Source: Bacteroidaceae bacterium (GTDB lineage: Bacteria; Bacteroidota; Bacteroidia; Bacteroidales; Bacteroidaceae). Taken from it: 63,755 nucleotides of DNA. The notes under the pieces are model-generated. The model did no database searches. It was not told the DNA's origin and was given only the letters and a program-made list of their open reading frames with translations. Position numbers and translations under genes: made by a program. Shown in pieces: positions 14,244-26,292 of this stretch (its first letter is position 1; the number at the start of each line of letters is the position of its first letter). The stretch is from NCBI GenBank assembly GCA_045654445.1, contig JAZONI010000128.1, forward strand, positions 1 through 63,755, read 5' to 3'.

Positions 14244-15314
14244 TTATGAATGAGCAGGATGGTGTTTGTGGCTGTTCCTGAAAAGACGATTAATGATCAG
14301 TTCAATAACCAAGGGGACCGCAGCGCCAACTACCGAATAGAGGATCCACCACCCATGTCGTGCGCTATGAGGAACAGGGAAGGCTAACAAATCTTGATGA
14401 GACATCACTCCTATAGTCACTAATAATAAAGTTAATAACTTAAAGGAGAGAAAGTGCCATATCATAATATGTAAAGTACGTTTGCCTATGTAGTCCAAGG
14501 CATTTGAAATAGTTGAATGCTGCAGGAAGGTCGATATCTGCATCACCATGATGCAACCAGACAAGGCAATTACCCAATATAGGAATATTTGCCATGTATC
14601 TACCGTATGCATTTTAACAGGCATATATATGCTACCCGCAATTGTTAAAACTGCACCTATCAACCAAAGGCATTTGTTTAGCTTGAGTTGTTTCATTTCT
14701 GGACTATATAGTTTGTATAGGTAGCCAGAGAGAAAGAATGTCAAACATAGAAAGGTCAATTTATATATAATGCCAGTAATATGTAGATTAATGCTATAAC
14801 TTAAAATTGTGAGGAACACAGTCAATAGAAGGGCTGACACTATGAATGGAGTGTTTTTATCAATATTCCTTCTCTTACATACAGTCTGGTGTAGTTTCAG
14901 TATTATCCATCCTATAATAGTCACACGTATCAGTTGCTGCAGAAACCAAAATGTACCCAACATATCTTCAGACTGCGCCATAAGTCCTGATAATAGTATC
15001 CTCTTCAGGATTTCCGACCATGTATATTCTGTTGCTTCAAACCCCGCGAGGAACAATAAATTGTGCAATAGGATGAAGATGATGTTCCATTTTAAGAAGG
15101 GCCACCAGAGTGATTTCACCTTTTTCTTCAGAAAAGAGATAAATGAGCATAGCCCTTTCTCATTAAAGAGGTAGCCCGAAACAAAGAAGAAGAAAGGCAT
15201 GTGAAACATGTATAACCAATCCTTTATGGCCTTAGGACAGGCACTATGCCCTATTACCATCAGCAGGATGCAAATCCCCTTTCCTATTGATATCGCTTTA
15301 TTATGACTATTCAT
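14244..15314 (-). CDS. Acyltransferase-3 family membrane O-acyltransferase
   Basis: 356 aa and about 10 TM helices. The N-terminus IGKGICILLMVIGHS...FHMPFFFFVSGY is typical of acyltransferase family 3. It is divergent from the glycan operon. Confidence 0.75.
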   Translation of the reverse strand: MNSHNKAISIGKGICILLMVIGHSACPKAIKDWLYMFHMPFFFFVSGYLFNEKGLCSFISFLKKKVKSLWWPFLKWNIIFILLHNLLFLAGFEATEYTWSEILKRILLSGLMAQSEDMLGTFWFLQQLIRVTIIGWIILKLHQTVCKRRNIDKNTPFIVSALLLTVFLTILSYSINLHITGIIYKLTFLCLTFFLSGYLYKLYSPEMKQLKLNKCLWLIGAVLTIAGSIYMPVKMHTVDTWQIFLYWVIALSGCIMVMQISTFLQHSTISNALDYIGKRTLHIMIWHFLSFKLLTLLLVTIGVMSHQDLLAFPVPHSARHGWWILYSVVGAAVPLVIELIINRLFRNSHKHHPAHS

Positions 15315-15530
15315 CTATCCTATATTTATCAATCCGCTGTCAGATTTGCTCTATTCTCTTATTATTTGGTAGGAGGCTAAATCGTTAAAACGACCTTATT
15401 ATTTGACAAGGCGAAAGTACATAGAATATCTGATATGACAAAGAATGCGGGAGAAATGTTAGCTCAGTATTTTATATACCCCATTTTTAATAAAAAAAGC
15501 AAATGCGGTGGCAAACTCACTTTTTCTTAT

Positions 15531-15538
15531 TAACTTTG
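15531..15538 (+). promoter_or_regulatory. Putative -7 box TAACTTTG for the first glycan-island operon
   Basis: Exact TAnnTTTG match 45 nt upstream of ATG 15583, in a 268-bp divergent spacer. Confidence 0.4.
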
Positions 15539-15582
15539 TCAAATTAATATAGTTGGACATAAAATATTATTAGATATAAGTA

Positions 15583-17400
15583 ATGCAAGCAATCATATTA
15601 GCAGCGGGTATGGGTAAGCGCCTTGGCGAACTCACCAAGAACAATACCAAATGTATGGTGTCTGTTAATGGCGAACGCTTAATAGATCGTATGCTAACTC
15701 AGCTCTCCTCACGAAGTTTGTCACGTGTGGTGATTGTGGTCGGTTATAAGAAGAATGAGCTGATTAGTCATATAGGCGACCGATATGATGACCGTATAAA
15801 GATAGAGTATGTACATAACGATATCTACGATAAGACAAACAATATATACTCCCTCGCATTAGCTAAGCAGTATATGCTTGAAGAGGATACGTTGTTGTTG
15901 GAATCGGATCTTATCTTTGATGACAATATGCTTGATCTTATTATCAACAATCCTTATCCCAATTTGGCGCTTGTTGCCAAATACGAGACCTGGATGGATG
16001 GTACGATGGTACGTATATCAGAGGATAATGACATCATGAGTTTCATTCCGAAGAAGGCTTTTAAATATTCAGAGATAGAGCACTATTATAAGACTTGCAA
16101 TATATATAAATTTAGTCGCGAGTTTTCGTCAACGCAGTATGTGCCCTTCTTGGAGGCCTACAGCAAAGCGATGGGTAATAATGAGTATTATGAACAGGTG
16201 CTTCGCGTGCTTACTGCCCTTGACCGTTCAGACTTGAAAGCACTACCCATAACTAATGAAAAGTGGTATGAAATAGATGATGTACAAGATCTTGATATTG
16301 CTGCAACAATGTTTTCGTCAGAGGATGAGTTGCTTGGCAAGTATTATCGTCGTTATGGTGGCTATTGGCGCTTCCCCCAGCTGAAAGATTATTGCTATCT
16401 GGTGAATCCCTACTACCCAAGTCCCAAGATGAAGGATGAGTTGCGGGCCAATTTCGACGTATTACTTACTGAATATCCTTCGGGGATGTATGTCAATTCC
16501 TTATTAGCAGGTAAGTATTTCGGAATCAGCCAAGATTATGTGGTGGTAGGTAATGGCGCTGCAGAGCTTATTAAGAGCTATATAGAGAATCATGTGGAGG
16601 GAAATATTGGTATCATATTCCCTACATTTGAGGAGTATCCCAATCGTGCATTGGCAGAGCGTATTATTAAGTATGTCCCCAATAATGCAGACTTCTCTTA
16701 TACAGCAAAAGATATCCAAACATTCTATGCAGATAAAGAACTCTCAACTATTCTCTTGATTAATCCAGATAATCCATCAGGAAACTTCATCCCTATGGCT
16801 GAGTTGTTGCCATTGATTGAATGGGCACATGAGCGCGGTATCACGATGGTTGTGGACGAGAGTTTTGTGGATTTTACAAATGATTTTGCTAATAATTCGC
16901 TGCTGCACAATAACGTGCTAGAGACACATAGTAATCTTGTTGTCGTAAAATCTATCAGCAAATCGTATGGTGTACCTGGATTGCGTTTGGGAATTCTTGC
17001 CTCGGGGAATAACGATTTAATCACACGTTTGAAGAAAGAGGTAGCGATATGGAATATCAATTCCTTTGCAGAGTTCTATATGCAGATTTTCGGTAAGTAT
17101 GAGAAAGATTATTTCGTTGCTTGTCAGAAGTTTATCGAGGAACGCGACATTTTCTTTGATGAGTTGAAAACTGTTTCATATTTGCGCGTTATACCTTCGC
17201 AAGCCAATTATTTCCTATGTGAAGTGACGGATAAGTATACGGCAACCGAACTAACCCAATTATTATTAAAACAATATAATATCCTTATCAAAGATTGTGG
17301 TACTAAATCAGCTTTTGCAGGTAAGCAATATATTCGTATTGCCATTCGCGACAGGGCTGATAATGCCTACTTTGTAAAAGCATTAAAAGAATTGTCATGA
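15583..17400 (+). CDS. Fusion protein: LicC/MobA-like nucleotidyl(cytidylyl)transferase + class I/II PLP-fold (HisC/CobD-like) domain
   Basis: The N-terminal ILAAGMGKRLG...NGERLIDR is a nucleotidyltransferase signature. The C-terminal half has LINPDNPSGN and SISKSYGVPGLRLG (PLP-Lys motif). Its stop overlaps the next start (ATGA at 17397-17400). Confidence 0.75.
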   Translation: MQAIILAAGMGKRLGELTKNNTKCMVSVNGERLIDRMLTQLSSRSLSRVVIVVGYKKNELISHIGDRYDDRIKIEYVHNDIYDKTNNIYSLALAKQYMLEEDTLLLESDLIFDDNMLDLIINNPYPNLALVAKYETWMDGTMVRISEDNDIMSFIPKKAFKYSEIEHYYKTCNIYKFSREFSSTQYVPFLEAYSKAMGNNEYYEQVLRVLTALDRSDLKALPITNEKWYEIDDVQDLDIAATMFSSEDELLGKYYRRYGGYWRFPQLKDYCYLVNPYYPSPKMKDELRANFDVLLTEYPSGMYVNSLLAGKYFGISQDYVVVGNGAAELIKSYIENHVEGNIGIIFPTFEEYPNRALAERIIKYVPNNADFSYTAKDIQTFYADKELSTILLINPDNPSGNFIPMAELLPLIEWAHERGITMVVDESFVDFTNDFANNSLLHNNVLETHSNLVVVKSISKSYGVPGLRLGILASGNNDLITRLKKEVAIWNINSFAEFYMQIFGKYEKDYFVACQKFIEERDIFFDELKTVSYLRVIPSQANYFLCEVTDKYTATELTQLLLKQYNILIKDCGTKSAFAGKQYIRIAIRDRADNAYFVKALKELS

Positions 17401-18410
17401 TGAGGACAGTATGTATTTGTGGAGGTGGTTCGTTGGGGCATGTTATAGCTGGCTATCTAGGCACAAAAGAAAATGTCTCTGTAAATATTTTAACACGAAA
17501 ACCCGAGTTGTGGAAGCGCGAATTGTGTATATCTACTCCTGAAGGTGATGTGCTGAAAGGTAAACTTAATATTATCAGTAATAAGCCCGAAGAGGCATTG
17601 CGTAATGCTACCATCGTGCTTTTGTGTTTACCAGGCTATGCAATCAAGAATGAGCTGCTTTATATAAGGCCCTATCTGACCGCACAGACATATGTGGGTT
17701 CTGTATTCTCTTCTACAGGTTTTTTCTTTGAGGCCTTGGACCTGCTCGAAGAGAATGTCCCTTTATGGGGATTTCAACGTGTGCCTTTTATTGCTCGTAC
17801 AGACAAGTATGGTGAGAGTGCCCACCTGTTGGGATATAAAAGCGCACATAACATCGCTGTTGAACGTAGCAATAATAAAGAAGTTTTTCGTCAACTTATC
17901 GAAGAATTGTTTGATGTACCAGTGCACTTACTAAATAACTATTACGAGGCTAGCTTTACCAATAGTAATCCGATTCTACATCCTTCGCGTTTATATACCT
18001 TGTTTAAAGATTGGAACGATAAGGTGTATTATGACCATCAGTATCTATTTTATGAGGAATGGACAGATGAGGCCTCGGAATTATTGATAGCATTGGATAG
18101 AGAATTATTTAAGATATTGGCATATTTGCCTGTTTCGACAGACTATCTAATGCCAATACTCCCTTATTATGAGAGTACTGATGCGCAAAGCCTTACCCGG
18201 AAGATACGCTCGATAAGTGGTTTCAAGGGTATTAAAGCTCCAATGACCTGTTCTGAGAAAGGCTGGCAGCCTGATTTGAATAGCCGCTACTTTCAAGAAG
18301 ACTTTATGTATGGTATACGATATATCCATCAAGAGGCACACAAATTAGGTGTTGATGTACCGTTGATTGATAAAGTATACGATTGGGGAAAGGGCTTGAT
18401 TAAAGGCTGA
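17397..18410 (+). CDS. NAD(P)-dependent octopine/nopaline-dehydrogenase-family reductase
   Basis: 337 aa with an N-terminal Rossmann motif (VCICGGGSLGHVIAGYL). Its length and layout fit the opine-DH / glycerol-phosphate-DH-like family. It is translationally coupled to the upstream fusion gene. Confidence 0.6.
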   Translation: MMRTVCICGGGSLGHVIAGYLGTKENVSVNILTRKPELWKRELCISTPEGDVLKGKLNIISNKPEEALRNATIVLLCLPGYAIKNELLYIRPYLTAQTYVGSVFSSTGFFFEALDLLEENVPLWGFQRVPFIARTDKYGESAHLLGYKSAHNIAVERSNNKEVFRQLIEELFDVPVHLLNNYYEASFTNSNPILHPSRLYTLFKDWNDKVYYDHQYLFYEEWTDEASELLIALDRELFKILAYLPVSTDYLMPILPYYESTDAQSLTRKIRSISGFKGIKAPMTCSEKGWQPDLNSRYFQEDFMYGIRYIHQEAHKLGVDVPLIDKVYDWGKGLIKG

Positions 18411-18456
18411 AATTCTCCTTAAATGTTATTAGTATATTTTTTTAAGCTGTTGAAGA

Positions 18457-19992
18457 ATGTCCTCAGTCAACCAGAAACGTATAGCTAAAAACACAGCCTT
18501 ACTCTATGTGAGGATGTTGTTTATTATGGTTGTCAGTCTGTATACCTCTCGTGTCATATTGCGCACTTTGGGTGAGATTGATTTTGGACTTTATACAGTA
18601 ATTGGTGGTATAGTTGTAGCTTTTTCGTTCCTTAATGGCGTGATGTCCTCGGCCTGTAGCCGTTATTTTGCTATTGAGATTGGAAGGGGGGACGATGACG
18701 CATTACGTAAGGTTTTTAACTTGAATGTTACTATATTTATTCTTCTAGGTGGGATTATCCTGTTATTAGCAGAGACTATTGGGCTTTGGTTTTTAAATCA
18801 TAAGATGGTGATACCTTCCGATAGAATGGAGGCTGCACAATGGGTGTATCAATGCTCTATTATCGCCTTTATCATAAATATGTTTGCAACTCCCTATCGT
18901 TCTGTGATAACTGCGCGAGAGAATATGAAGGTGTATGCTTATTGCAGTGTGGTAGAGGTGATATTGAAATTGGCGATTGTATATCTGTTGGTGGTATCTC
19001 CCTTTGATAAGTTGATACTTTATTCTGTATTGATGGTTAGCATCACTGTAGGGACTAGCTTGTTTTATGCTCTATATTGTCGGCGTTACTATGCCGAATG
19101 CCGCTATTCCTTCTATTGGGATAAGCCCCTCTTTAAGGAGATTGTAGGCTATACAGGATGGCAGGTTATTGGTGTAGCATCTGATATCGGGCGTAATCAG
19201 GGTGTGAATATCATTCTGAATATGTTCTTTGGTTCCATTGCCAATGCTGCGCGCGGTATAGCATACCAAGTATTTATGAATATTAACCAGTTTGTGCAGA
19301 ATTTTGTTATAGCATTTAGTCCACAGATTACCAAGTCCTACGCGGTAGGTGATAGAGAAGGGATGATGAAATTGGTGTTTCAGAGTTCGAAGTTTTCATA
19401 CTACCTATTGTATATGCTTATTCTTCCTGTTTGCATGGAGACTTCCAAGATATTGGAGATTTGGTTAGGTGATGTGCCTAAAGATACGGTTATCTTCTGT
19501 CAATTGACGTTAATTGCCGCGCTTATAGATTCGTTGCTATATCCATTGCTCACGGCTATTCGTGCTACGGGTAAGGTGAAATGGTATCAAATACTGGTAG
19601 GTGGTACTCTGCTGCTTACAGTGCCTATATGCTATGGTTTGTTCAAGTGGGGTAATCTTCCTGCTACTGCTGCTTTTTATGTAGTGATAGCAACATCTAT
19701 TGTCGCACAGATACTGCGTGTCGTAATTATGAGCCATTTGCATAAGATGAGTATAAAAGATTATGTTCAAGCCGTATTACAGCCTATATTGTTAGTAACT
19801 ATACTATCTGCAATTGTTCCTATGGTACTTAAATTAATTTTATCACCTAGCCTCTGGAGCACTTTGTGCTGTATAGTAATGAGTATAGCCTCTGTAGGAG
19901 TAACAATATGGTTGGTAGGCCTTACTGCTACAGAACGTTCTCAAATTTGTGATGTAATATCAAAGTATCTTGTTAAGTCTAAATCATCATGA
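18457..19992 (+). CDS. wzx: Polysaccharide flippase (Wzx / MOP superfamily)
   Basis: 511 aa with ~12-14 TM helices. The N-terminus KNTALLYVRMLFIMVVSLYTSRVILRTLG is typical of O-unit flippases. Confidence 0.75.
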   Translation: MSSVNQKRIAKNTALLYVRMLFIMVVSLYTSRVILRTLGEIDFGLYTVIGGIVVAFSFLNGVMSSACSRYFAIEIGRGDDDALRKVFNLNVTIFILLGGIILLLAETIGLWFLNHKMVIPSDRMEAAQWVYQCSIIAFIINMFATPYRSVITARENMKVYAYCSVVEVILKLAIVYLLVVSPFDKLILYSVLMVSITVGTSLFYALYCRRYYAECRYSFYWDKPLFKEIVGYTGWQVIGVASDIGRNQGVNIILNMFFGSIANAARGIAYQVFMNINQFVQNFVIAFSPQITKSYAVGDREGMMKLVFQSSKFSYYLLYMLILPVCMETSKILEIWLGDVPKDTVIFCQLTLIAALIDSLLYPLLTAIRATGKVKWYQILVGGTLLLTVPICYGLFKWGNLPATAAFYVVIATSIVAQILRVVIMSHLHKMSIKDYVQAVLQPILLVTILSAIVPMVLKLILSPSLWSTLCCIVMSIASVGVTIWLVGLTATERSQICDVISKYLVKSKSS

Positions 19993-20765
19993 TTGATGCA
20001 CATACACAGCAACTATTACGCGAACGATATAATCCAGAGGGCTCACCATGTCGAGAACTTCAATTGCAGTTGTTAGAGATTCTCAAGGAGTTTGATGCTA
20101 TCTGTACAAGACATCATATACCCTATTGGATTGATTCTGGGACACTGATTGGTGCTGTTCGTCATGGTGGGTTCATTCCGTGGGATGATGATATTGATGT
20201 TTGTATTCTTAAGCGAGATCAAGCTCGGTTGCGTGAGGTAATGCTACGTGAACTACGCTCTCCTATGCATTATGTCGACAATAAGGTGGATGCGTCCCAT
20301 GCACGCAAATGGCCACGTATAGTGAAGCCTGGTGTGGTAACAGACTCTCGTGGTAATCAGCAAGAGGTTTGGCTTGATGTCTTTATTATGGAGTATGGCA
20401 ATAGGCGTTTGTTCAATTTAGTCAATCAGACCTATGGACGTTGTTACAGAAGACTGAGTGGGCTAATTGTCGAGTCGCCCTTGCGTAGACTTTTGGTATC
20501 AATTGTCTATCCTTTGTGTTGGCTTATTATGCAAAGTGCTCGTTGTTGGGGTCGTTGTTTTTGCCGTAATACGTTGATCTTTGATTATGGTGGTATATTC
20601 TCCAGCATTCGTAAGATGGATGAGATATTTCCTCTTACGCAAATAGAGTTTGAGGGAATGAGCTTTAGTGCGCCAGCTCATAGTGATCGTTATTTGCAGC
20701 GTATCTATGGCGATTATATGGCATTGCCTGCTGAGTGTTTGCGTATAACGCATAATTTGATATAA
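19989..20765 (+). CDS. licD: LicD-family phosphotransferase
   Basis: YWIDSGTLIGAVRHGGFIPWDDDIDV is the LicD signature. There is an ATGA start/stop overlap with wzx. Confidence 0.8.
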   Translation: MIDAHTQQLLRERYNPEGSPCRELQLQLLEILKEFDAICTRHHIPYWIDSGTLIGAVRHGGFIPWDDDIDVCILKRDQARLREVMLRELRSPMHYVDNKVDASHARKWPRIVKPGVVTDSRGNQQEVWLDVFIMEYGNRRLFNLVNQTYGRCYRRLSGLIVESPLRRLLVSIVYPLCWLIMQSARCWGRCFCRNTLIFDYGGIFSSIRKMDEIFPLTQIEFEGMSFSAPAHSDRYLQRIYGDYMALPAECLRITHNLI

Positions 20766-20816
20766 TCCTCAGTTGTATAAATCAGGATAAAACTCAACTT
20801 ATTCATAAAAATAGTG

Positions 20817-20824
20817 TATATTTG
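20817..20824 (+). promoter_or_regulatory. Putative internal -7 box TATATTTG for the second half of the glycan island
   Basis: Exact match 38 nt upstream of ATG 20862, in the only sizeable gap (96 bp) inside the island. It coincides with a shift in base composition. Confidence 0.4.
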
Positions 20825-20861
20825 TAACTTGAAAAGTTTTACCTGAAAAGGAAGAGGCCGT

Positions 20862-22004
20862 ATGGAAAAAGCATTAATTGTAGGAGGCAGCAACGGAATA
20901 GGATTGGCTATCGCCCTGGAACTGTCACAAACATACAAGCATGTTATCATAGTAGACAAGGTTGCTCCTGACAACACTATTCCCAATAATTGCAGCTTTA
21001 CAAAAGCCAATCTGCTAGGTGGAGATTTTAGTTTCTTGAATAACTACAACGATATTGACACCCTAGTTATCACTGCAGGCTTTGGGCGTGTGGCAGCTTT
21101 TGAGAGTATCACACCCACAGAGATCAACAACTCATTCAAGGTGAATACTATTGCTGTATTCCAAATCTTACGCTACTACTTCGAGCGTATGCAGCAGTTT
21201 ACTCCCTTCCATTGTGCTGTGATGGGTAGCATAGCCGGACTAGTGTCATCACCCCTATTCGCACTATACGGAGCTACCAAGGCAGCCGTATGCAATGGTA
21301 TAGAGAGCCTCAATATTGAGTTGGAGCAGAGTGGCACAGACAACCGCATCCTGAATGTCTCACCAGGGTCGATCAAGGGGACACGCTTCAATGGCGGTGA
21401 TAACAAACTCGATGCCCTACAACCGCTAGCACAGCAAATCATCAATGAAATGCAGGCACAACACACCCGTTTCATCCCTGATTATGAACCCATATTCCGC
21501 GGTGTCATTGAGCGATACCAAGCCAATGCACATCAATATGGTTTGGATAGCTATAAGTACAAGATGGAGGGAGGACGCCTATCTACCCACCCCCAAGTAA
21601 GAGTTGGTTACCTGAGCGGAACCTTCGACCTCTTCCATATAGGTCATCTCAATCTGTTGAGGCGTGCCAAAGAACACTGCGATTATCTTGTTGTAGGAAT
21701 TCATAAAGATGCTTCACATAAAGGCAAAGATGCATTCATCCCCTTTGACGAACGTGTCGATATAGTCCGTAACATCAAATACGTCGATGAGGTCATACAG
21801 TCAGAGCCCGAAGACAGTGATGTATACACCAAGGGCATTGTTAAATATGATTATCTTTTCGTCGGCTCCGATTATAAGGGTACCGAGCGCTTCAACCGTT
21901 ATGAGGCCTACTTTGCCGACAAAGGTGTAGAAATCATCTATTTCCCCTATACCCAAGGTACAAGTAGCACCCAGCTACGAGACTATTTACAACATGTAAA
22001 ATAA
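20862..22004 (+). CDS. Fusion protein: short-chain dehydrogenase/reductase + TagD-like (HIGH-motif) cytidylyltransferase
   Basis: The N-terminal SDR part has GGSNGIGLAIA and YGATKAA (YxxxK). The C-terminal part GTFDLFHIGHLNLLRRAKEHCDYLVVGI...IKYVDEVI...GTSSTQLRDYL is colinear with glycerol-3-phosphate cytidylyltransferase. Confidence 0.75.
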   Translation: MEKALIVGGSNGIGLAIALELSQTYKHVIIVDKVAPDNTIPNNCSFTKANLLGGDFSFLNNYNDIDTLVITAGFGRVAAFESITPTEINNSFKVNTIAVFQILRYYFERMQQFTPFHCAVMGSIAGLVSSPLFALYGATKAAVCNGIESLNIELEQSGTDNRILNVSPGSIKGTRFNGGDNKLDALQPLAQQIINEMQAQHTRFIPDYEPIFRGVIERYQANAHQYGLDSYKYKMEGGRLSTHPQVRVGYLSGTFDLFHIGHLNLLRRAKEHCDYLVVGIHKDASHKGKDAFIPFDERVDIVRNIKYVDEVIQSEPEDSDVYTKGIVKYDYLFVGSDYKGTERFNRYEAYFADKGVEIIYFPYTQGTSSTQLRDYLQHVK

Positions 22005-22016
22005 CCCATTCCATCG

Positions 22017-23222
22017 ATGAAAAACGAAAATCTCCTCCAACTGATACTGCATTGCATCGGTGCTTTACTGTTCTTACCATTTTGGTATCTGCAACGGTTG
22101 CTTCCCCGCAGCAAACAAGTATGGTTGTTTGGTTCATGGTTTGGGCAGAAATATTCTGACAACTCACGCGGCATGTACGAATATGTACTTGCCCACGAGC
22201 CCCATATACATCCCATGTGGATTACCCATAGCAAAGAGGTGTATACCCGCCTGCAGGCTGAGGACAAGCCCGTAGCTATGGCCCACTCATGGAAGGGGCG
22301 TTGGTGGTGCTTACGTGCAGGAGTAGTATTTATCACAACGGCTGCAGCCGAGATGAATGCCAAGTACCTCAATGGAGCACGTATGGTATGGCTATGGCAT
22401 GGTATGGTCATCAAGCAGATTATGGCCGATGAGGTACGCTTCAAGAACCAGCAGTATAGCACCTTCAAACGTATAAAGGTAGCCATCAACAACTTCCTCT
22501 TCCCATGGGAAAATCATGTGCGAAAAGATGCTGTACTCAGTACAGCAGATTTCTTCAATCCCTTCTTGGCATCAGCCTTCGAGGTTGATAACGCATCACT
22601 TTGGACCGATGGCTATCCACGCAACGATGCCCTATTCTCTAGTACACAAGAGGGAATTATCACACGCTACCGACAGCAGTTCCCTACCGCGAAGTTCATC
22701 ATTTACATGCCCACCCATCGACTCAATGAACGCAAAGGAACACCCTTCAACGGATTTGAGGATTTCGGGTTCGACCAAGAGGAGTTTTTCAAAGTATTGG
22801 AGGAGCAGGACTACGTATTCTTCAATAAAGGGCACTTTTACGATAGTGGAGCACAGATTGGAATGAGCAATCCTCGATTCTTGAATGTCACAGATAAGGA
22901 TTTTGACAATCTCTACACCTTTGTCAAAGATATGGATATCCTAATGACCGACTTCTCGAGCATATATATCGACTACCTGTTGGTCAAGAAACCCATTATT
23001 CTCACTCCCTTCGACTATGAAGACTATATCACCGGAGAGCGCCCCTTATATTTCGACTATAACGACTTGGAAGGTACACGTGCCAACGACTGGGATGAAG
23101 TGCTTCACATCCTTCGTGAACATACCTATTGCGTTCCTAGCGATGCTCAAATCAGTCGATTCCATCGATATATTGATGGAAATAGTGCTCAGCGCATAGC
23201 CAAACATATACAAGAAAGCTAA
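22017..23222 (+). CDS. CDP-glycerol/ribitol polyol-phosphotransferase (TagB/TagF family)
   Basis: IIYMPTHR... and MTDFSSIYIDYLLVKKPIILTPFDYEDY match the TagF-family catalytic region. Confidence 0.75.
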   Translation: MKNENLLQLILHCIGALLFLPFWYLQRLLPRSKQVWLFGSWFGQKYSDNSRGMYEYVLAHEPHIHPMWITHSKEVYTRLQAEDKPVAMAHSWKGRWWCLRAGVVFITTAAAEMNAKYLNGARMVWLWHGMVIKQIMADEVRFKNQQYSTFKRIKVAINNFLFPWENHVRKDAVLSTADFFNPFLASAFEVDNASLWTDGYPRNDALFSSTQEGIITRYRQQFPTAKFIIYMPTHRLNERKGTPFNGFEDFGFDQEEFFKVLEEQDYVFFNKGHFYDSGAQIGMSNPRFLNVTDKDFDNLYTFVKDMDILMTDFSSIYIDYLLVKKPIILTPFDYEDYITGERPLYFDYNDLEGTRANDWDEVLHILREHTYCVPSDAQISRFHRYIDGNSAQRIAKHIQES

Positions 23223-23231
23223 ACTAAAAGG

Positions 23232-24254
23232 ATGAGACCCCGTGCACTGATTATTGGCCCCAAATATTACCACTATCTCAACGCTTGCGAGCATGCATTC
23301 AAAGAGTTGGGCTGGGATGCTGTGGTAGAGTCATACGACAACCCTATCCACCCCTACACACCCACTATGAAGTGGCGCTACAAATTGTCTTGTAACAAAG
23401 TAGCTATGCAACACAAAAGCCGGACGGCCTATGCAGCCTATATCGAGAGACGATTCCAAGAAGTACAGCCCCATGTGGTATTCATCATGAATGGTGACAT
23501 ACTAGAGGCCACTACGCTCGACAGATTCAGACAATCAGCCAAGGTGCTGCTGTGGCTGTTTGACAACCGCAACAAGATACCCACCTCCATAGCCCACGCA
23601 GATCATGTAGACAACCTCTTTTGCTTCGAGCAAGAAGATGTCGACTGGTATCTTTCACAAGGTAAGCAAGCGCACTTTCTGCCTCAAGCTTGCGATACAG
23701 CCACCTACTTTCCCATCGAAGGGCCCAAGGATATCGACATCCTATTTGTCGGAGTACTCTACTACTCGCCTCGTCGACAGCAGATCATCCGCAACCTCAT
23801 ACATCGCTTCCCCGAGCTGCGTATCGTCGTGTTTGGTACCTATAAGCCCTGGTACAAGAATCCCCTTAAGTGGCTTCTACGCGAGAAACGGCACATATAC
23901 CAAAATCGTAACATCAGCGCTCACGAGGTCAACCTATATTATAACCGCTCACGCATCGTGCTCAACATCCACCAAGAGCAACAGCAGAACGGGGCAAACC
24001 CCCGTACCTTCGAAATTAGTGGCACCGCAGCTTACCAACTATGCGATGCCAACCCCTATATCGAATCGCTCTTCACACACGGTGAAATCGGTATTTACCA
24101 CACTGAAGAGGAGCTACACCAACTCATCGAGGAGGCCATCGCTCACGACCGCACTGCTCAAGCAAGACAAGCCTATCACTTCGTACAGACACACCACACC
24201 TTCACCGTACGTATCAAGGAGGCCCTCACCACAGCACATGTCATCACACTATAG
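23232..24254 (+). CDS. Glycosyltransferase, CgeB/Glyco_trans_1_2-like
   Basis: 340 aa. The C-terminal YNRSRIVLNIH...NPRTFEISGTAAYQLCD...HTEEELHQLIEEAI is typical of CgeB-type GT-B enzymes. Confidence 0.6.
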   Translation: MRPRALIIGPKYYHYLNACEHAFKELGWDAVVESYDNPIHPYTPTMKWRYKLSCNKVAMQHKSRTAYAAYIERRFQEVQPHVVFIMNGDILEATTLDRFRQSAKVLLWLFDNRNKIPTSIAHADHVDNLFCFEQEDVDWYLSQGKQAHFLPQACDTATYFPIEGPKDIDILFVGVLYYSPRRQQIIRNLIHRFPELRIVVFGTYKPWYKNPLKWLLREKRHIYQNRNISAHEVNLYYNRSRIVLNIHQEQQQNGANPRTFEISGTAAYQLCDANPYIESLFTHGEIGIYHTEEELHQLIEEAIAHDRTAQARQAYHFVQTHHTFTVRIKEALTTAHVITL

Positions 24255-24257
24255 CCT

Positions 24258-25262
24258 ATGCCTCATATATCTATCATTATACCTATATATAACGCCAGTG
24301 CCTATATAGAAGAGTGCCTATCATCACTCGTGGCGCAGACGATGGACAATATCGAAGTGTTGCTCATCGACGATCATGGACGCGACGATAGCATGCAACG
24401 TGCCATGCGTTTCATCGAGACTCACCCCTGTGGAAAGACCTTTAGATTGCTGTCAACCCCACACAATATGGGCCCAGGTCCCGCACGCAATGTGGGTATC
24501 GATGCAGCCAAGGGGCAATATATAGGTTTCATTGATAGCGACGATGTGGTAGAACCCGACTTCTGCGAGCAGCTCTACCAAGCAGCCCAAGCGCACGATG
24601 CCGATCTCAGCTACTGCCAGGCAGTACTTGTGAAACCCACAGAAACACTCCCCATGCGTAACCCCATCATCGAGAATGGGGCATTCGATGGTGACAAGCG
24701 CCGCTATTTCCTGACCCATTATACCACTCTATTCGTGTCGTTCCTCTACCGTCGCTCACTGCTGAACGAATATAATATCCGTTTCCCTTCCACACGGAGT
24801 GCCGAAGACAGCTACTTTCTTACCTGTGCCCTGTTGGCTTCAAATCGCATAGCTTGCATAGACAAGCCCCTCTACCAGTACCTCGTACATGAGGACTCAC
24901 TCTCTGAGGTGCGTAACCCCAAGCGCTATCTCGACAAGATGCATTCATTTGACCTCCTACTAGCCTTTGCACACGAAAAGGGACTCTACGATACCAATAA
25001 ACAGGAAATTGACTATATCTATCTGAAAAAAGCCTACCTCCTAAGCATCTTTACCTATATACACAACGGCGACTACCCTCACAAAACAGTACTCTTCGAG
25101 CTACATCAACGGCTATTGGACCAGATACCCGATTATACACGTAACTCCCACTACCTTGCCGACTACAAGATGCGCTTACTCCACATGCTCATCTACCGCA
25201 TGCCACGCATAGCAATCCATCTCATCCCCTACTACATACGTTTAACCAAGATGAAACTATAA
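24258..25262 (+). CDS. Family 2 glycosyltransferase
   Basis: ISIIIPIYNASAYIEECLSSL...LLIDDHGRDDS...FIDSDD are GT2 DxD-type motifs. Confidence 0.85.
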   Translation: MPHISIIIPIYNASAYIEECLSSLVAQTMDNIEVLLIDDHGRDDSMQRAMRFIETHPCGKTFRLLSTPHNMGPGPARNVGIDAAKGQYIGFIDSDDVVEPDFCEQLYQAAQAHDADLSYCQAVLVKPTETLPMRNPIIENGAFDGDKRRYFLTHYTTLFVSFLYRRSLLNEYNIRFPSTRSAEDSYFLTCALLASNRIACIDKPLYQYLVHEDSLSEVRNPKRYLDKMHSFDLLLAFAHEKGLYDTNKQEIDYIYLKKAYLLSIFTYIHNGDYPHKTVLFELHQRLLDQIPDYTRNSHYLADYKMRLLHMLIYRMPRIAIHLIPYYIRLTKMKL

Positions 25263-25269
25263 TCCCCCG

Positions 25270-26292
25270 ATGAAGAAGCCTATTCGCATAAAATTTGTGG
25301 ACTTTTGGGACGATTTCGTTCCCGAGCAGAGTCTCTTCTACCAGCTCCTATCACAGAGATACGAAATAGAGTTGACTGACAACCCCGACTATCTCTTCTG
25401 CTCCGTCTTCGGCGACGAACACTTGAGCTACGACTGCGTGAAGATATTCTATACCGGTGAGAACCAATGCCCCGACTTCAACCTCTACGACTACGCCATC
25501 GGCTTTGAGCGTCTCACATTAGGCGACCGTTACTTCCGTCTACCCATATACTACCTCTATGCCAACGACTTTGCAGCCATGCAAGCCAAGCATGAGGCCG
25601 TTTCACTCGATGAAAAGGAGCATTTTTGCAGCTTTGTCTATTCTAACAACAATGCATCGCCCCATCGCGAGGTGTTCCTCAACAAGCTCAACGAGTACCA
25701 AACAGTTTCATCAGGCGGTCGCTATCGCAACAATGTGGGTGGTCCCGTGGCTGACAAGCTACAGTTCCAGCTCACTCATAAGTTCAGCATCGCCTTCGAG
25801 AATAGCAGCTACCCAGGCTACTGCACCGAGAAGTTGGTGCAGTCCTTTGCAGCTCGCACTATTCCCATCTATTGGGGAGACGAGTTTGTAGGTGAAACCT
25901 TCAACGAAGGTGCTTTCATTAATTGCCACCGCTTTGCCTCATGGGACGAGGTTGTTTCCGAAGTCAAGCGTATCGATAACGATGACGTCCTCTACCTACA
26001 GATGCTACAGACACCAGCGCTCAACCATCCACACGATGATAGTCGCGAAGCTACCTTGCAGAGACTCACTGATTTCTTTTCACACATCGTAGACCAACCC
26101 CTTGACAAGGCCACGCGTTACAACCGTCACTATTGGGGCAAACGCTACAACGACCGCATGCGCAACTATGCCAAAGCATATCACTACACACCCCGCGGCA
26201 TGGCCGACTATCTATACAAGAAATATCTCTGGAAACACCGCCGCAAAGGCATACTGTGGAAGATAGACCGTTTAATCAAGCGAATTTCATGA
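25270..26292 (+). CDS. Family 10 glycosyltransferase (alpha-1,3/4-fucosyltransferase-like)
   Basis: KFSIAFENSSYPGYCTEKLVQSFAARTIPIYWGD is the conserved GT10 motif (FutA-like). Confidence 0.75.
   Translation: MKKPIRIKFVDFWDDFVPEQSLFYQLLSQRYEIELTDNPDYLFCSVFGDEHLSYDCVKIFYTGENQCPDFNLYDYAIGFERLTLGDRYFRLPIYYLYANDFAAMQAKHEAVSLDEKEHFCSFVYSNNNASPHREVFLNKLNEYQTVSSGGRYRNNVGGPVADKLQFQLTHKFSIAFENSSYPGYCTEKLVQSFAARTIPIYWGDEFVGETFNEGAFINCHRFASWDEVVSEVKRIDNDDVLYLQMLQTPALNHPHDDSREATLQRLTDFFSHIVDQPLDKATRYNRHYWGKRYNDRMRNYAKAYHYTPRGMADYLYKKYLWKHRRKGILWKIDRLIKRIS

Follow-up and report, generated by a model that had tools for sequence, protein, structure and literature searches.

We describe here a gene cassette that lies in a 63,755-bp contig (the window, that is, the whole stretch of DNA analyzed) of a 2.1-Mb Bacteroidales metagenome-assembled genome, 77% complete. 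The cassette begins with a gene encoding a 605-amino-acid (aa) fusion of a nucleotidyltransferase (NT) and a pyridoxal phosphate (PLP)-dependent enzyme. This is followed directly by a gene for an NAD(P)-dependent enzyme of the opine dehydrogenase family (OpDH) and, two genes further downstream, by a gene for a LicD-family phosphotransferase (Table 1). The cassette is real, widespread and uncharacterized, and represents a variant built from known kinds of enzymes. We consider it probable that the fusion enzyme makes CDP-ethanolamine. If so, N-carboxyalkylation of this product by the OpDH-family enzyme is also favored, with somewhat less confidence. To the whole reaction sequence, from phosphoserine and CTP through CDP-ethanolamine and its N-carboxyalkylation to transfer by LicD, we assign an even chance of being correct.

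The nucleotidyltransferase-PLP fusion and its probable substrate

The initial annotation had read from the sequence a 605-aa polypeptide joining an NT domain with the motif ILAAGMGKRLG to a PLP domain with the motif SISKSYGVPGLRLG, coupled through an ATGA overlap to a gene of the octopine/nopaline dehydrogenase family, with a LicD gene two genes downstream. All of these elements were recovered. Pfam models NTP_transferase and NTP_transf_3 cover residues 1-134 of the fusion and Aminotran_1_2 covers residues 311-601; the two motifs lie at residues 5-15 and 457-470, the latter with the PLP lysine, K460. The start codon of the OpDH gene (ATG, 17397-17399) overlaps the stop codon of the fusion gene (TGA, 17398-17400), the 337-aa product matches Octopine_DH with 108.8 bits (cut-off 30) as well as ApbA, and the LicD gene follows a Wzx-like gene.

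No fewer than 576 stretches from species-representative genomes encode a relative of the fusion, and the best 80 of these come nearly all from gut or rumen Bacteroidales; Prevotella sp. P5-50 and Xylanibacter rarus 109 are candidate carriers. A HMMER search against 1.84 billion cluster representatives yielded 704 proteins at E ≤ 1e-30; more than 100 full-length fusion clusters (clustering at 50% identity) were found, reaching down to 30% identity to the query. This occurrence of the fusion is far above chance. A search of the literature found no paper describing the cassette, which is weak evidence of novelty as most subscription journals lie outside its coverage.

Across 40 diverse relatives, residues G9, G11, R13, K23, E230, D232 and D236 of the transferase half and N397, D425, F428, K460, R468 and R585 of the PLP half are near-invariant. 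Because the catalytic residues are so well preserved, both domains can be taken, as far as sequence conservation tells, to be active enzymes under selection.

The N-terminal domain aligns with pneumococcal LicC (1jyk, 1.5e-13), including R13, K23 and the EIDxxQD motif, and also with the PntC domain of Tde1415 (6pd1); G9, G11, R13 and K23 match in both LicC and Tde1415. The transferases encoded near the fusion relatives are LicD, TagF-like or CDP-alcohol transferases, and a LicD gene is present within the flanks of 61 of the 80 loci (counts of LicD and of the downstream partner were taken over the best 80 stretches). For the LicD-family enzyme Mf1, a paper concerned with CDP-ethanolamine reports substrate flexibility (PMC11982090).

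Further fusions bear on the nature of the product. Three cluster representatives (P0124, P0125 and P0237; loci L111 and L112), with 37-51% identity to the query, are triple fusions in which an S-adenosylmethionine-dependent methyltransferase domain is added at the C-terminus. The best solved matches of the P0124 methyltransferase are the Arabidopsis phospho(methyl)ethanolamine N-methyltransferases 5wp5 (3.6e-11) and 5wp4 and the nematode enzyme 4krg, and inspection of the contigs showed that P0124 and P0125 both adjoin TagF-like transferases. These triple fusions suggest that bacteria can reach CDP-(methyl)ethanolamine or CDP-choline from phosphoserine without relying on choline. In Mesorhizobium, a relative adjoins genes for a phosphocholine cytidylyltransferase, a methyltransferase and a CDP-alcohol transferase. 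What these methyltransferase-linked relatives would have in common is a head group of amino-alcohol phosphate in which the nitrogen is modified.

Two other genomic contexts deserve mention. In Fusobacterium vincentii SB055 (L109, NZ_CP084075.1; a 2.1-Mb record filed as a plasmid, yet chromosome-sized), a 610-aa fusion with 49.5% identity is accompanied by LicD, with a formyltransferase-like gene and a DUF1015 protein in place of OpDH; the formyltransferase-like neighbor may represent another kind of amine tailoring. On the Erwinia rhapontici plasmid pERA53 (L110, 114554-132341), a homolog with 32% identity is followed by genes for a CDP-alcohol phosphatidyltransferase, a HAD protein, an FkbH-like HAD-IIIC protein, an SDR, an ATP-grasp protein and an MFS transporter. 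This gene set recurs in Rahnella and resembles a pathway for a small molecule or a lipid head group more than one for a glycan.

For the PLP domain, the best NCBIfam model is TIGR01140 (CobD) with 164.8 bits, below its cut-off of 290.55, followed by TIGR01141 (HisC) with 150.2 bits, below its cut-off of 276.55. The closest solved structure is 6oux, described as a 'threonine phosphate decarboxylase-like enzyme' (134 bits), followed by CobD 1lc5 (90.5 bits) and plant HisC 8bj1 (89.5 bits). The conserved catalytic Lys, Asp and Asn to be expected from the initial annotation are all present (K460, D425 and N397) and, together with R468, align with their counterparts in 6oux and 1lc5. We take 6oux to be the Sulfurospirillum norcobamide enzyme; PGAP names a Sulfurospirillum homolog 'norcobamide biosynthesis serine-O-phosphate decarboxylase'.

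A search of 401 Campylobacterales genomes found three full-length fusions; the best other matches are stand-alone proteins of 389-406 aa (132-142 bits), and the many HisC/CobD-like genes of 340-350 aa reach 74-90 bits at most. Two small genomes of this set show the order ATP-grasp, aminotransferase (423 or 480 aa), PLP match (389 aa) and HAD, which is the layout Cj1438C/Cj1437/Cj1436/Cj1435 of the C. jejuni HS:2 capsule locus. In that locus, serinol phosphate is formed by Cj1437, whereas Cj1436 is the serine-phosphate decarboxylase (PMC12409886). With labels assigned by synteny only, the PLP domain matches the Cj1436-like protein over its full length (145 bits, 28% identity) and the Cj1437-like neighbor partially (51 bits, 23% identity). 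The PLP domain and the decarboxylases have the motifs DxC[YF]LxNPY, DESF and WNxN in common, and the residue after the PLP aspartate is Phe (Phe428, in DESF), as in CobD and 6oux, whereas it is Tyr in HisC and the Cj1437-like protein. Because of these scores, on the side of 6oux and the Cj1436-like protein and not on that of the Cj1437-like protein and HisC, and because of the shared motifs, the domain groups with the serine-phosphate decarboxylases; serine phosphate is its most likely substrate, and serinol- and HisC-type activities are disfavored.

The initial annotation had proposed that a phospho-amino-alcohol made by the PLP domain is CDP-activated by the fused LicC-like domain and then transferred by LicD. 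The comparisons above support this proposal and narrow it to ethanolamine phosphate.

The opine-dehydrogenase-family partner

The 337-aa enzyme matches octopine dehydrogenase 3c7a at 3e-25, and its His195, Arg297 and Asp302 fall on His212, Arg324 and Asp329 of 3c7a, which we take to be the catalytic residues of that enzyme. The gene directly 3' of the fusion encodes an OpDH in 54 of the 80 loci and a member of the OCD/mu-crystallin family in 14; neither is found in 11 loci, in 6 of which LicD follows the fusion directly, and the remaining locus is truncated. One locus with an OCD partner (L032, CAZJKZ010000007.1) encodes a fusion that is 66% identical and shares no DNA with the window by megablast; its record happens to be just as long as the window (63,755 bp) but is a different contig. 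OpDH and OCD/mu-crystallin enzymes are known for the reduction of C=N bonds. Because two unrelated families with this chemistry replace each other in one slot, and because the slot may be empty, the arrangement has the pattern of an optional amine-tailoring step and not of precursor supply, as read from the gene contents.

Natural fusions between cassette members are also found: OpDH-LicD fusions of about 597 aa form dozens of clusters, and NT-PLP-OpDH fusions of about 944 aa form further clusters. Together with the methyltransferase triple fusions, they tie all four domains into one pathway, and they place OpDH between the fusion enzyme and LicD. The initial annotation had left the role of the reductase open; it is likely that this enzyme tailors the amine after the fusion enzyme has acted and before LicD does.

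Reductase relatives are rare in Streptococcus (1 of 401 genomes). In the cps locus of Streptococcus sp. zg-86 (L107, 1-19901), a 370-aa OpDH-family protein in which Ser replaces the triad Asp is encoded together with a HAD hydrolase, a small MobA/IspD-like nucleotidyltransferase and an Asp/Glu racemase; in a relative of this protein (P0307, 597 aa), the OpDH-like domain is fused to a racemase. This set is a separate, likewise uncharacterized head-group module.

Proposed pathway, related systems and competing explanations

Domain identities, conserved catalytic residues, gene order, natural fusions and the pattern of partner replacement are direct observations. In the pathway that we propose, the fusion enzyme would convert O-phospho-L-serine, drawn from central metabolism, and CTP to CDP-ethanolamine without any kinase: the LicC-type domain would form the CMP-phosphate bond and the PLP domain would remove the carboxyl group, in either order. 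The OpDH-family enzyme would then condense the free amine with a 2-oxo acid, in the simplest case pyruvate, to an imine that is reduced by NAD(P)H, and the product would be CDP-N-(1-carboxyalkyl)ethanolamine. LicD would attach the phospho-head group to one of the sugars in the polysaccharide that the adjacent glycosyltransferases build, and the Wzx-like protein would export the unit. We infer which substrates are used, in which order the steps run, which 2-oxo acid takes part and which sugar is the acceptor.

A decoration of this kind has a chemical precedent, as the O-polysaccharides of Proteus mirabilis carry N-[(R)-1-carboxyethyl]ethanolamine phosphate (PMC9630907). With slightly less than even confidence, we propose that the cassette provides the unassigned genes for N-(1-carboxyalkyl)ethanolamine phosphate decorations, with a kinase-free CDP-ethanolamine core and interchangeable OpDH, OCD or N-methyltransferase modules ahead of LicD or TagF-like transfer.

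The enzyme FrbH of Streptomyces rubellomurinus, compared by description, likewise combines a cytidylyltransferase and a CobD-like PLP domain with a Schiff-base lysine in one polypeptide. Both enzymes have a GxGxR loop and a catalytic lysine, represented here by G9, G11, R13 and K23. The compound on which FrbH acts, 2-amino-4-phosphonobutyrate, is the phosphonate isostere of O-phosphoserine. In the FR-900098 pathway, the N-terminal domain of FrbH cytidylylates this compound, which the C-terminal domain then decarboxylates (PMC8976061, PMC9088020); K38 is the catalytic lysine of the NT domain (PMC6697681). By analogy, cytidylylation may precede decarboxylation here as well, unlike the order given in the initial annotation. 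The two systems differ in that FrbH uses a phosphonate in an antibiotic pathway, whereas the present locus has no C-P machinery and its CDP product would go to LicD in a glycan locus; the nucleotide of the FrbH product is presumably removed later in the pathway. In effect, the cassette would combine an FrbH-like enzyme with LicD and place an opine dehydrogenase between the two.

Full-length homologs with 33-34% identity are encoded on Bacillus plasmids, beside dxr, an N-acetyltransferase gene and a 5'-nucleotidase gene, a set that resembles an FR-900098-type cluster. On the Bacillus toyonensis plasmid pDC11_2 (L114, 70428-86206), a full-length homolog with 34% identity occurs with a second dxr and genes for an AAC(3)-family acetyltransferase, an acyl carrier protein (ACP), an aminoacyl-tRNA synthetase (aaRS)-like protein, an ATP-grasp protein and a 5'-nucleotidase. 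The plasmid is conjugative, and the gene set has the look of a phosphonate cluster of the FR-900098/fosmidomycin type.

Among characterized proteins, Cj1436 and the Sulfurospirillum norcobamide enzyme (6oux) come closest to the PLP domain, with 134-145 bits and about 28% full-length identity, and Cj1436 also works in a capsule pathway (PMC12409886). Both differ from the fusion in being single-domain enzymes that supply free ethanolamine phosphate for a glucuronate amide or a cobamide linker, not for CDP activation. In the phosphocholine decoration of Streptococcus pneumoniae and Haemophilus, a LicC-type enzyme and a LicD transferase similarly put a CDP-activated amino-alcohol phosphate on a glycan. 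In contrast to that system, the cassette comes without the LicA kinase and the LicB transporter, decarboxylation within the pathway would provide the amino alcohol, and a dehydrogenase comes in ahead of the transfer.

The OpDH-family enzyme has its Pfam family and the active-site His, Arg and Asp in common with Pecten maximus octopine dehydrogenase (3c7a) and CENDH (1bg6). Both the OpDH and the OCD/mu-crystallin families include tauropine dehydrogenases, and these two unrelated kinds are mirrored by the alternation of OpDH and OCD in the cassette; taurine, like phosphoethanolamine, is a 2-aminoethyl acid. The known opine dehydrogenases, however, use free amino acids or taurine and serve in energy metabolism, metallophore synthesis or tumor opine synthesis. 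We know of no opine dehydrogenase that acts on a phospho- or CDP-linked amino alcohol or that is fused to LicD.

The PntC-AEPT fusion Tde1415 of Treponema denticola (6pd1; PMC6697681) also carries a LicC-like NT N-terminal to a PLP enzyme, with LicD-like transferases nearby, and concerns surface head groups. In its PLP part, a class V aminotransferase produces aminoethylphosphonate in dependence on phosphoenolpyruvate (PEP) mutase, and only the N-terminal domain matches here. Pneumococcal Gtp1, Gtp2 and Gtp3 with WchX, compared with the cassette by description, follow the same logic of reductase, nucleotidyltransferase and phosphotransferase in a capsule locus (PMC1391919, PMC3493582), but there the third enzyme is a putative phosphotransferase and the product is glycerol-2-phosphate. 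The fusion is thus not a CobD or HisC equivalog, because the NCBIfam cut-offs are missed, nor is it a PntC-AEPT fusion, and the cassette is not the Gtp1-3 pathway.

Several other explanations can be weighed against the proposed pathway. LicD could install plain phosphoethanolamine while OpDH or OCD does other work, for example the reductive amination of 3-phosphohydroxypyruvate or the reduction of another intermediate. The six loci that pass from the fusion straight to LicD without a reductase indicate that the fusion alone gives a usable donor, and the OCD family includes amino-acid dehydrogenases. SerC is present in the genome, however, and the supply of phosphoserine needs no further enzyme; moreover, the OpDH-LicD fusions put OpDH beside the last step and not the first, and other relatives fill the same slot with a fused N-methyltransferase, an amine-tailoring enzyme. 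We consider this explanation unlikely. A threonine-phosphate decarboxylase of the CobD type, leading to CDP-(R)-1-amino-2-propanol that is perhaps tailored further, would fit with CobD being the top NCBIfam model and with the acceptance of both serine and threonine phosphate by the 6oux enzyme. It is rendered quite improbable by the score of CobD 1lc5, 90 bits as compared with 134-145 bits for the serine-phosphate decarboxylase types, by the resemblance of the methyltransferase fused in relatives to phosphoethanolamine methyltransferases, and by the dedicated kinase that such a route needs, none being encoded in the operon. Equally, or marginally more, improbable is an aminotransferase of the HisC or Cj1437 type that would form serinol phosphate from dihydroxyacetone phosphate (DHAP), or a like amine from a keto-phosphate, and thereby CDP-serinol. 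The HisC model scores nearly as well as the CobD model (150 vs 165 bits) and rhizobial relatives are annotated as histidinol-phosphate transaminases, but the preference for the Cj1436-like over the Cj1437-like protein and the Phe after the PLP aspartate both point to a decarboxylase, and the neighbors of the rhizobial 'HisC' are the phosphocholine cytidylyltransferase, methyltransferase and CDP-alcohol transferase genes mentioned above, with no his genes.

We give very little credence to the two remaining explanations. One is a rearranged Gtp1-3/WchX pathway leading to CDP-2-glycerol. The analogy with Gtp1-3 drawn in the initial annotation is a loose one; it holds for the logic of reductase, cytidylyltransferase and transferase, the last being of the kind attributed to WchX, but it fails for the PLP domain: Gtp3 is listed as a putative phosphotransferase and not as a PLP enzyme (PMC3493582), and the cassette has a PLP domain in that place, without a kinase or HAD. 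The single Streptococcus genome with a reductase relative pairs it with a HAD, and the catalytic Asp is absent; OCD replacement and methyltransferase fusions would make no sense for glycerol. A version in which the fusion equals Gtp2 plus Gtp3, with Gtp1 downstream, was dropped in view of the 23F locus table, which gives Gtp3 as a putative phosphotransferase, and of the sole Streptococcus reductase relative, which pairs with a HAD and a separate nucleotidyltransferase. The other, no more credible, is that the fusion acts on a phosphonate, like FrbH or PntC, so that the head group would be a CMP-aminoalkylphosphonate. The architecture corresponds to that of FrbH-type enzymes and the N-terminal domain resembles the PntC domain of Tde1415; against this, no PEP mutase was found in the window or in the 77%-complete genome, and the Tde1415 PLP domain belongs to class V and not to class I/II.

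Some points also weigh against the proposed route through phosphoserine, CDP-ethanolamine and an opine step. The PLP domain lies far under the CobD and HisC cut-offs, which makes it a family of its own, and the distinction between the Cj1436-like and Cj1437-like proteins would stand or fall with synteny. The opine assignment is suggested by family membership, three conserved residues and context, and members of both partner families, OpDH and OCD, also catalyze other redox reactions. The Streptococcus homolog, 32% identical, belongs to another kind of module, alongside a HAD and a nucleotidyltransferase, but it is without the triad Asp. The precedent in Proteus is a chemical one, and the pathway, including the glycan substituent, is predicted from genes.

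Genomic setting and possible meaning of the cassette

The cassette is part of an AT-rich island (14244-26292) with a G+C content of 38-40%, as compared with about 50% in the flanks, bordered by metG on one side and by an acyl-CoA dehydrogenase/ETF cluster on the other. The sequence TAACTTTG, 45 nt 5' of the start codon of the fusion gene, fits TAnnTTTG, the Bacteroidetes -7 promoter consensus, and is a possible promoter of the operon. The Wzx-like gene has a counterpart with 81-82% identity at the same position in three related loci (L001, L002 and L004). The remaining co-directional genes of the operon encode an SDR/TagD-like cytidylyltransferase fusion, a TagF-like transferase, two glycosyltransferases and a GT10 fucosyltransferase, and the glycan is probably fucosylated in addition to being decorated with a phosphodiester.

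Table 1 Features of the cassette and its operon in the window.
Feature	Coordinates	Strand	Properties and predicted role
Candidate promoter	15531-15538	+	Read from sequence
Fusion gene, 605 aa	15583-17400	+	LicC-type cytidylyltransferase and CobD-like PLP decarboxylase domain; predicted to make CDP-ethanolamine from O-phospho-L-serine
NT domain, residues 1 to ~245	15583-16317	+	G9-x-G11-K-R13, K23, NNIYSL, YEIDDVQD
Class I/II PLP domain, residues ~260-605	16360-17397	+	N397, D425, F428, K460 (Schiff-base lysine), R468, R585
OpDH-family NAD(P) enzyme, 337 aa	17397-18410	+	PF02317; predicted N-carboxyalkylating (opine-forming) tailoring enzyme
Wzx-like flippase candidate, 511 aa	18457-19992	+	Weak MatE match, below cut-off; role suggested by operon position
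LicD-family phosphotransferase, 258 aa	19989-20765	+	PF04991, 109.7 bits (cut-off 22.6); NF045866, 76 bits; predicted transferase of the CDP-activated head group to a glycan
Second activated-alcohol module	20862-23222	+	380-aa fusion of an N-terminal SDR reductase and a C-terminal TagD-like cytidylyltransferase (PF01467), then a TagF-like glycerophosphotransferase
GT10 alpha-1,3-fucosyltransferase	25270-26292	+	FucT_N and Glyco_transf_10; last gene of the operon

The pair of SDR-TagD-like and TagF-like genes also adjoins the cassette in four other loci (L017, L021, L024 and L027), with 61-62% identity. It may make a CDP-polyol of the glycerol or ribitol type, and its domain order is unlike that of Bcs1 or TarIJ. 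Metatranscriptome contigs from two libraries of one animal-gut study overlap the operon at 97-100% identity (15510-15953, 19211-19663, 20053-20551 and 20869-21850), but as carry-over of DNA is possible, and as separate contigs do not demonstrate a single transcript, we do not count them as evidence of expression.

Phosphocholine and phosphoethanolamine on bacterial glycans shape their recognition by antibodies, C-reactive protein and lectins. If the proposed pathway is correct, many gut and rumen Bacteroidales, as well as relatives in other phyla, would make such head groups from central metabolism without the uptake of choline or ethanolamine, and plug-in tailoring enzymes would vary them. 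Genes would be assigned to a decoration that is so far known only chemically, and the opine dehydrogenases would gain a new class of substrates, acting on a nucleotide-activated compound. It would further point to a common cell-surface enzyme as the ancestor of FrbH, an enzyme of antibiotic synthesis, and gut Bacteroidales would carry an unexplored family of zwitterionic or acidic surface epitopes.

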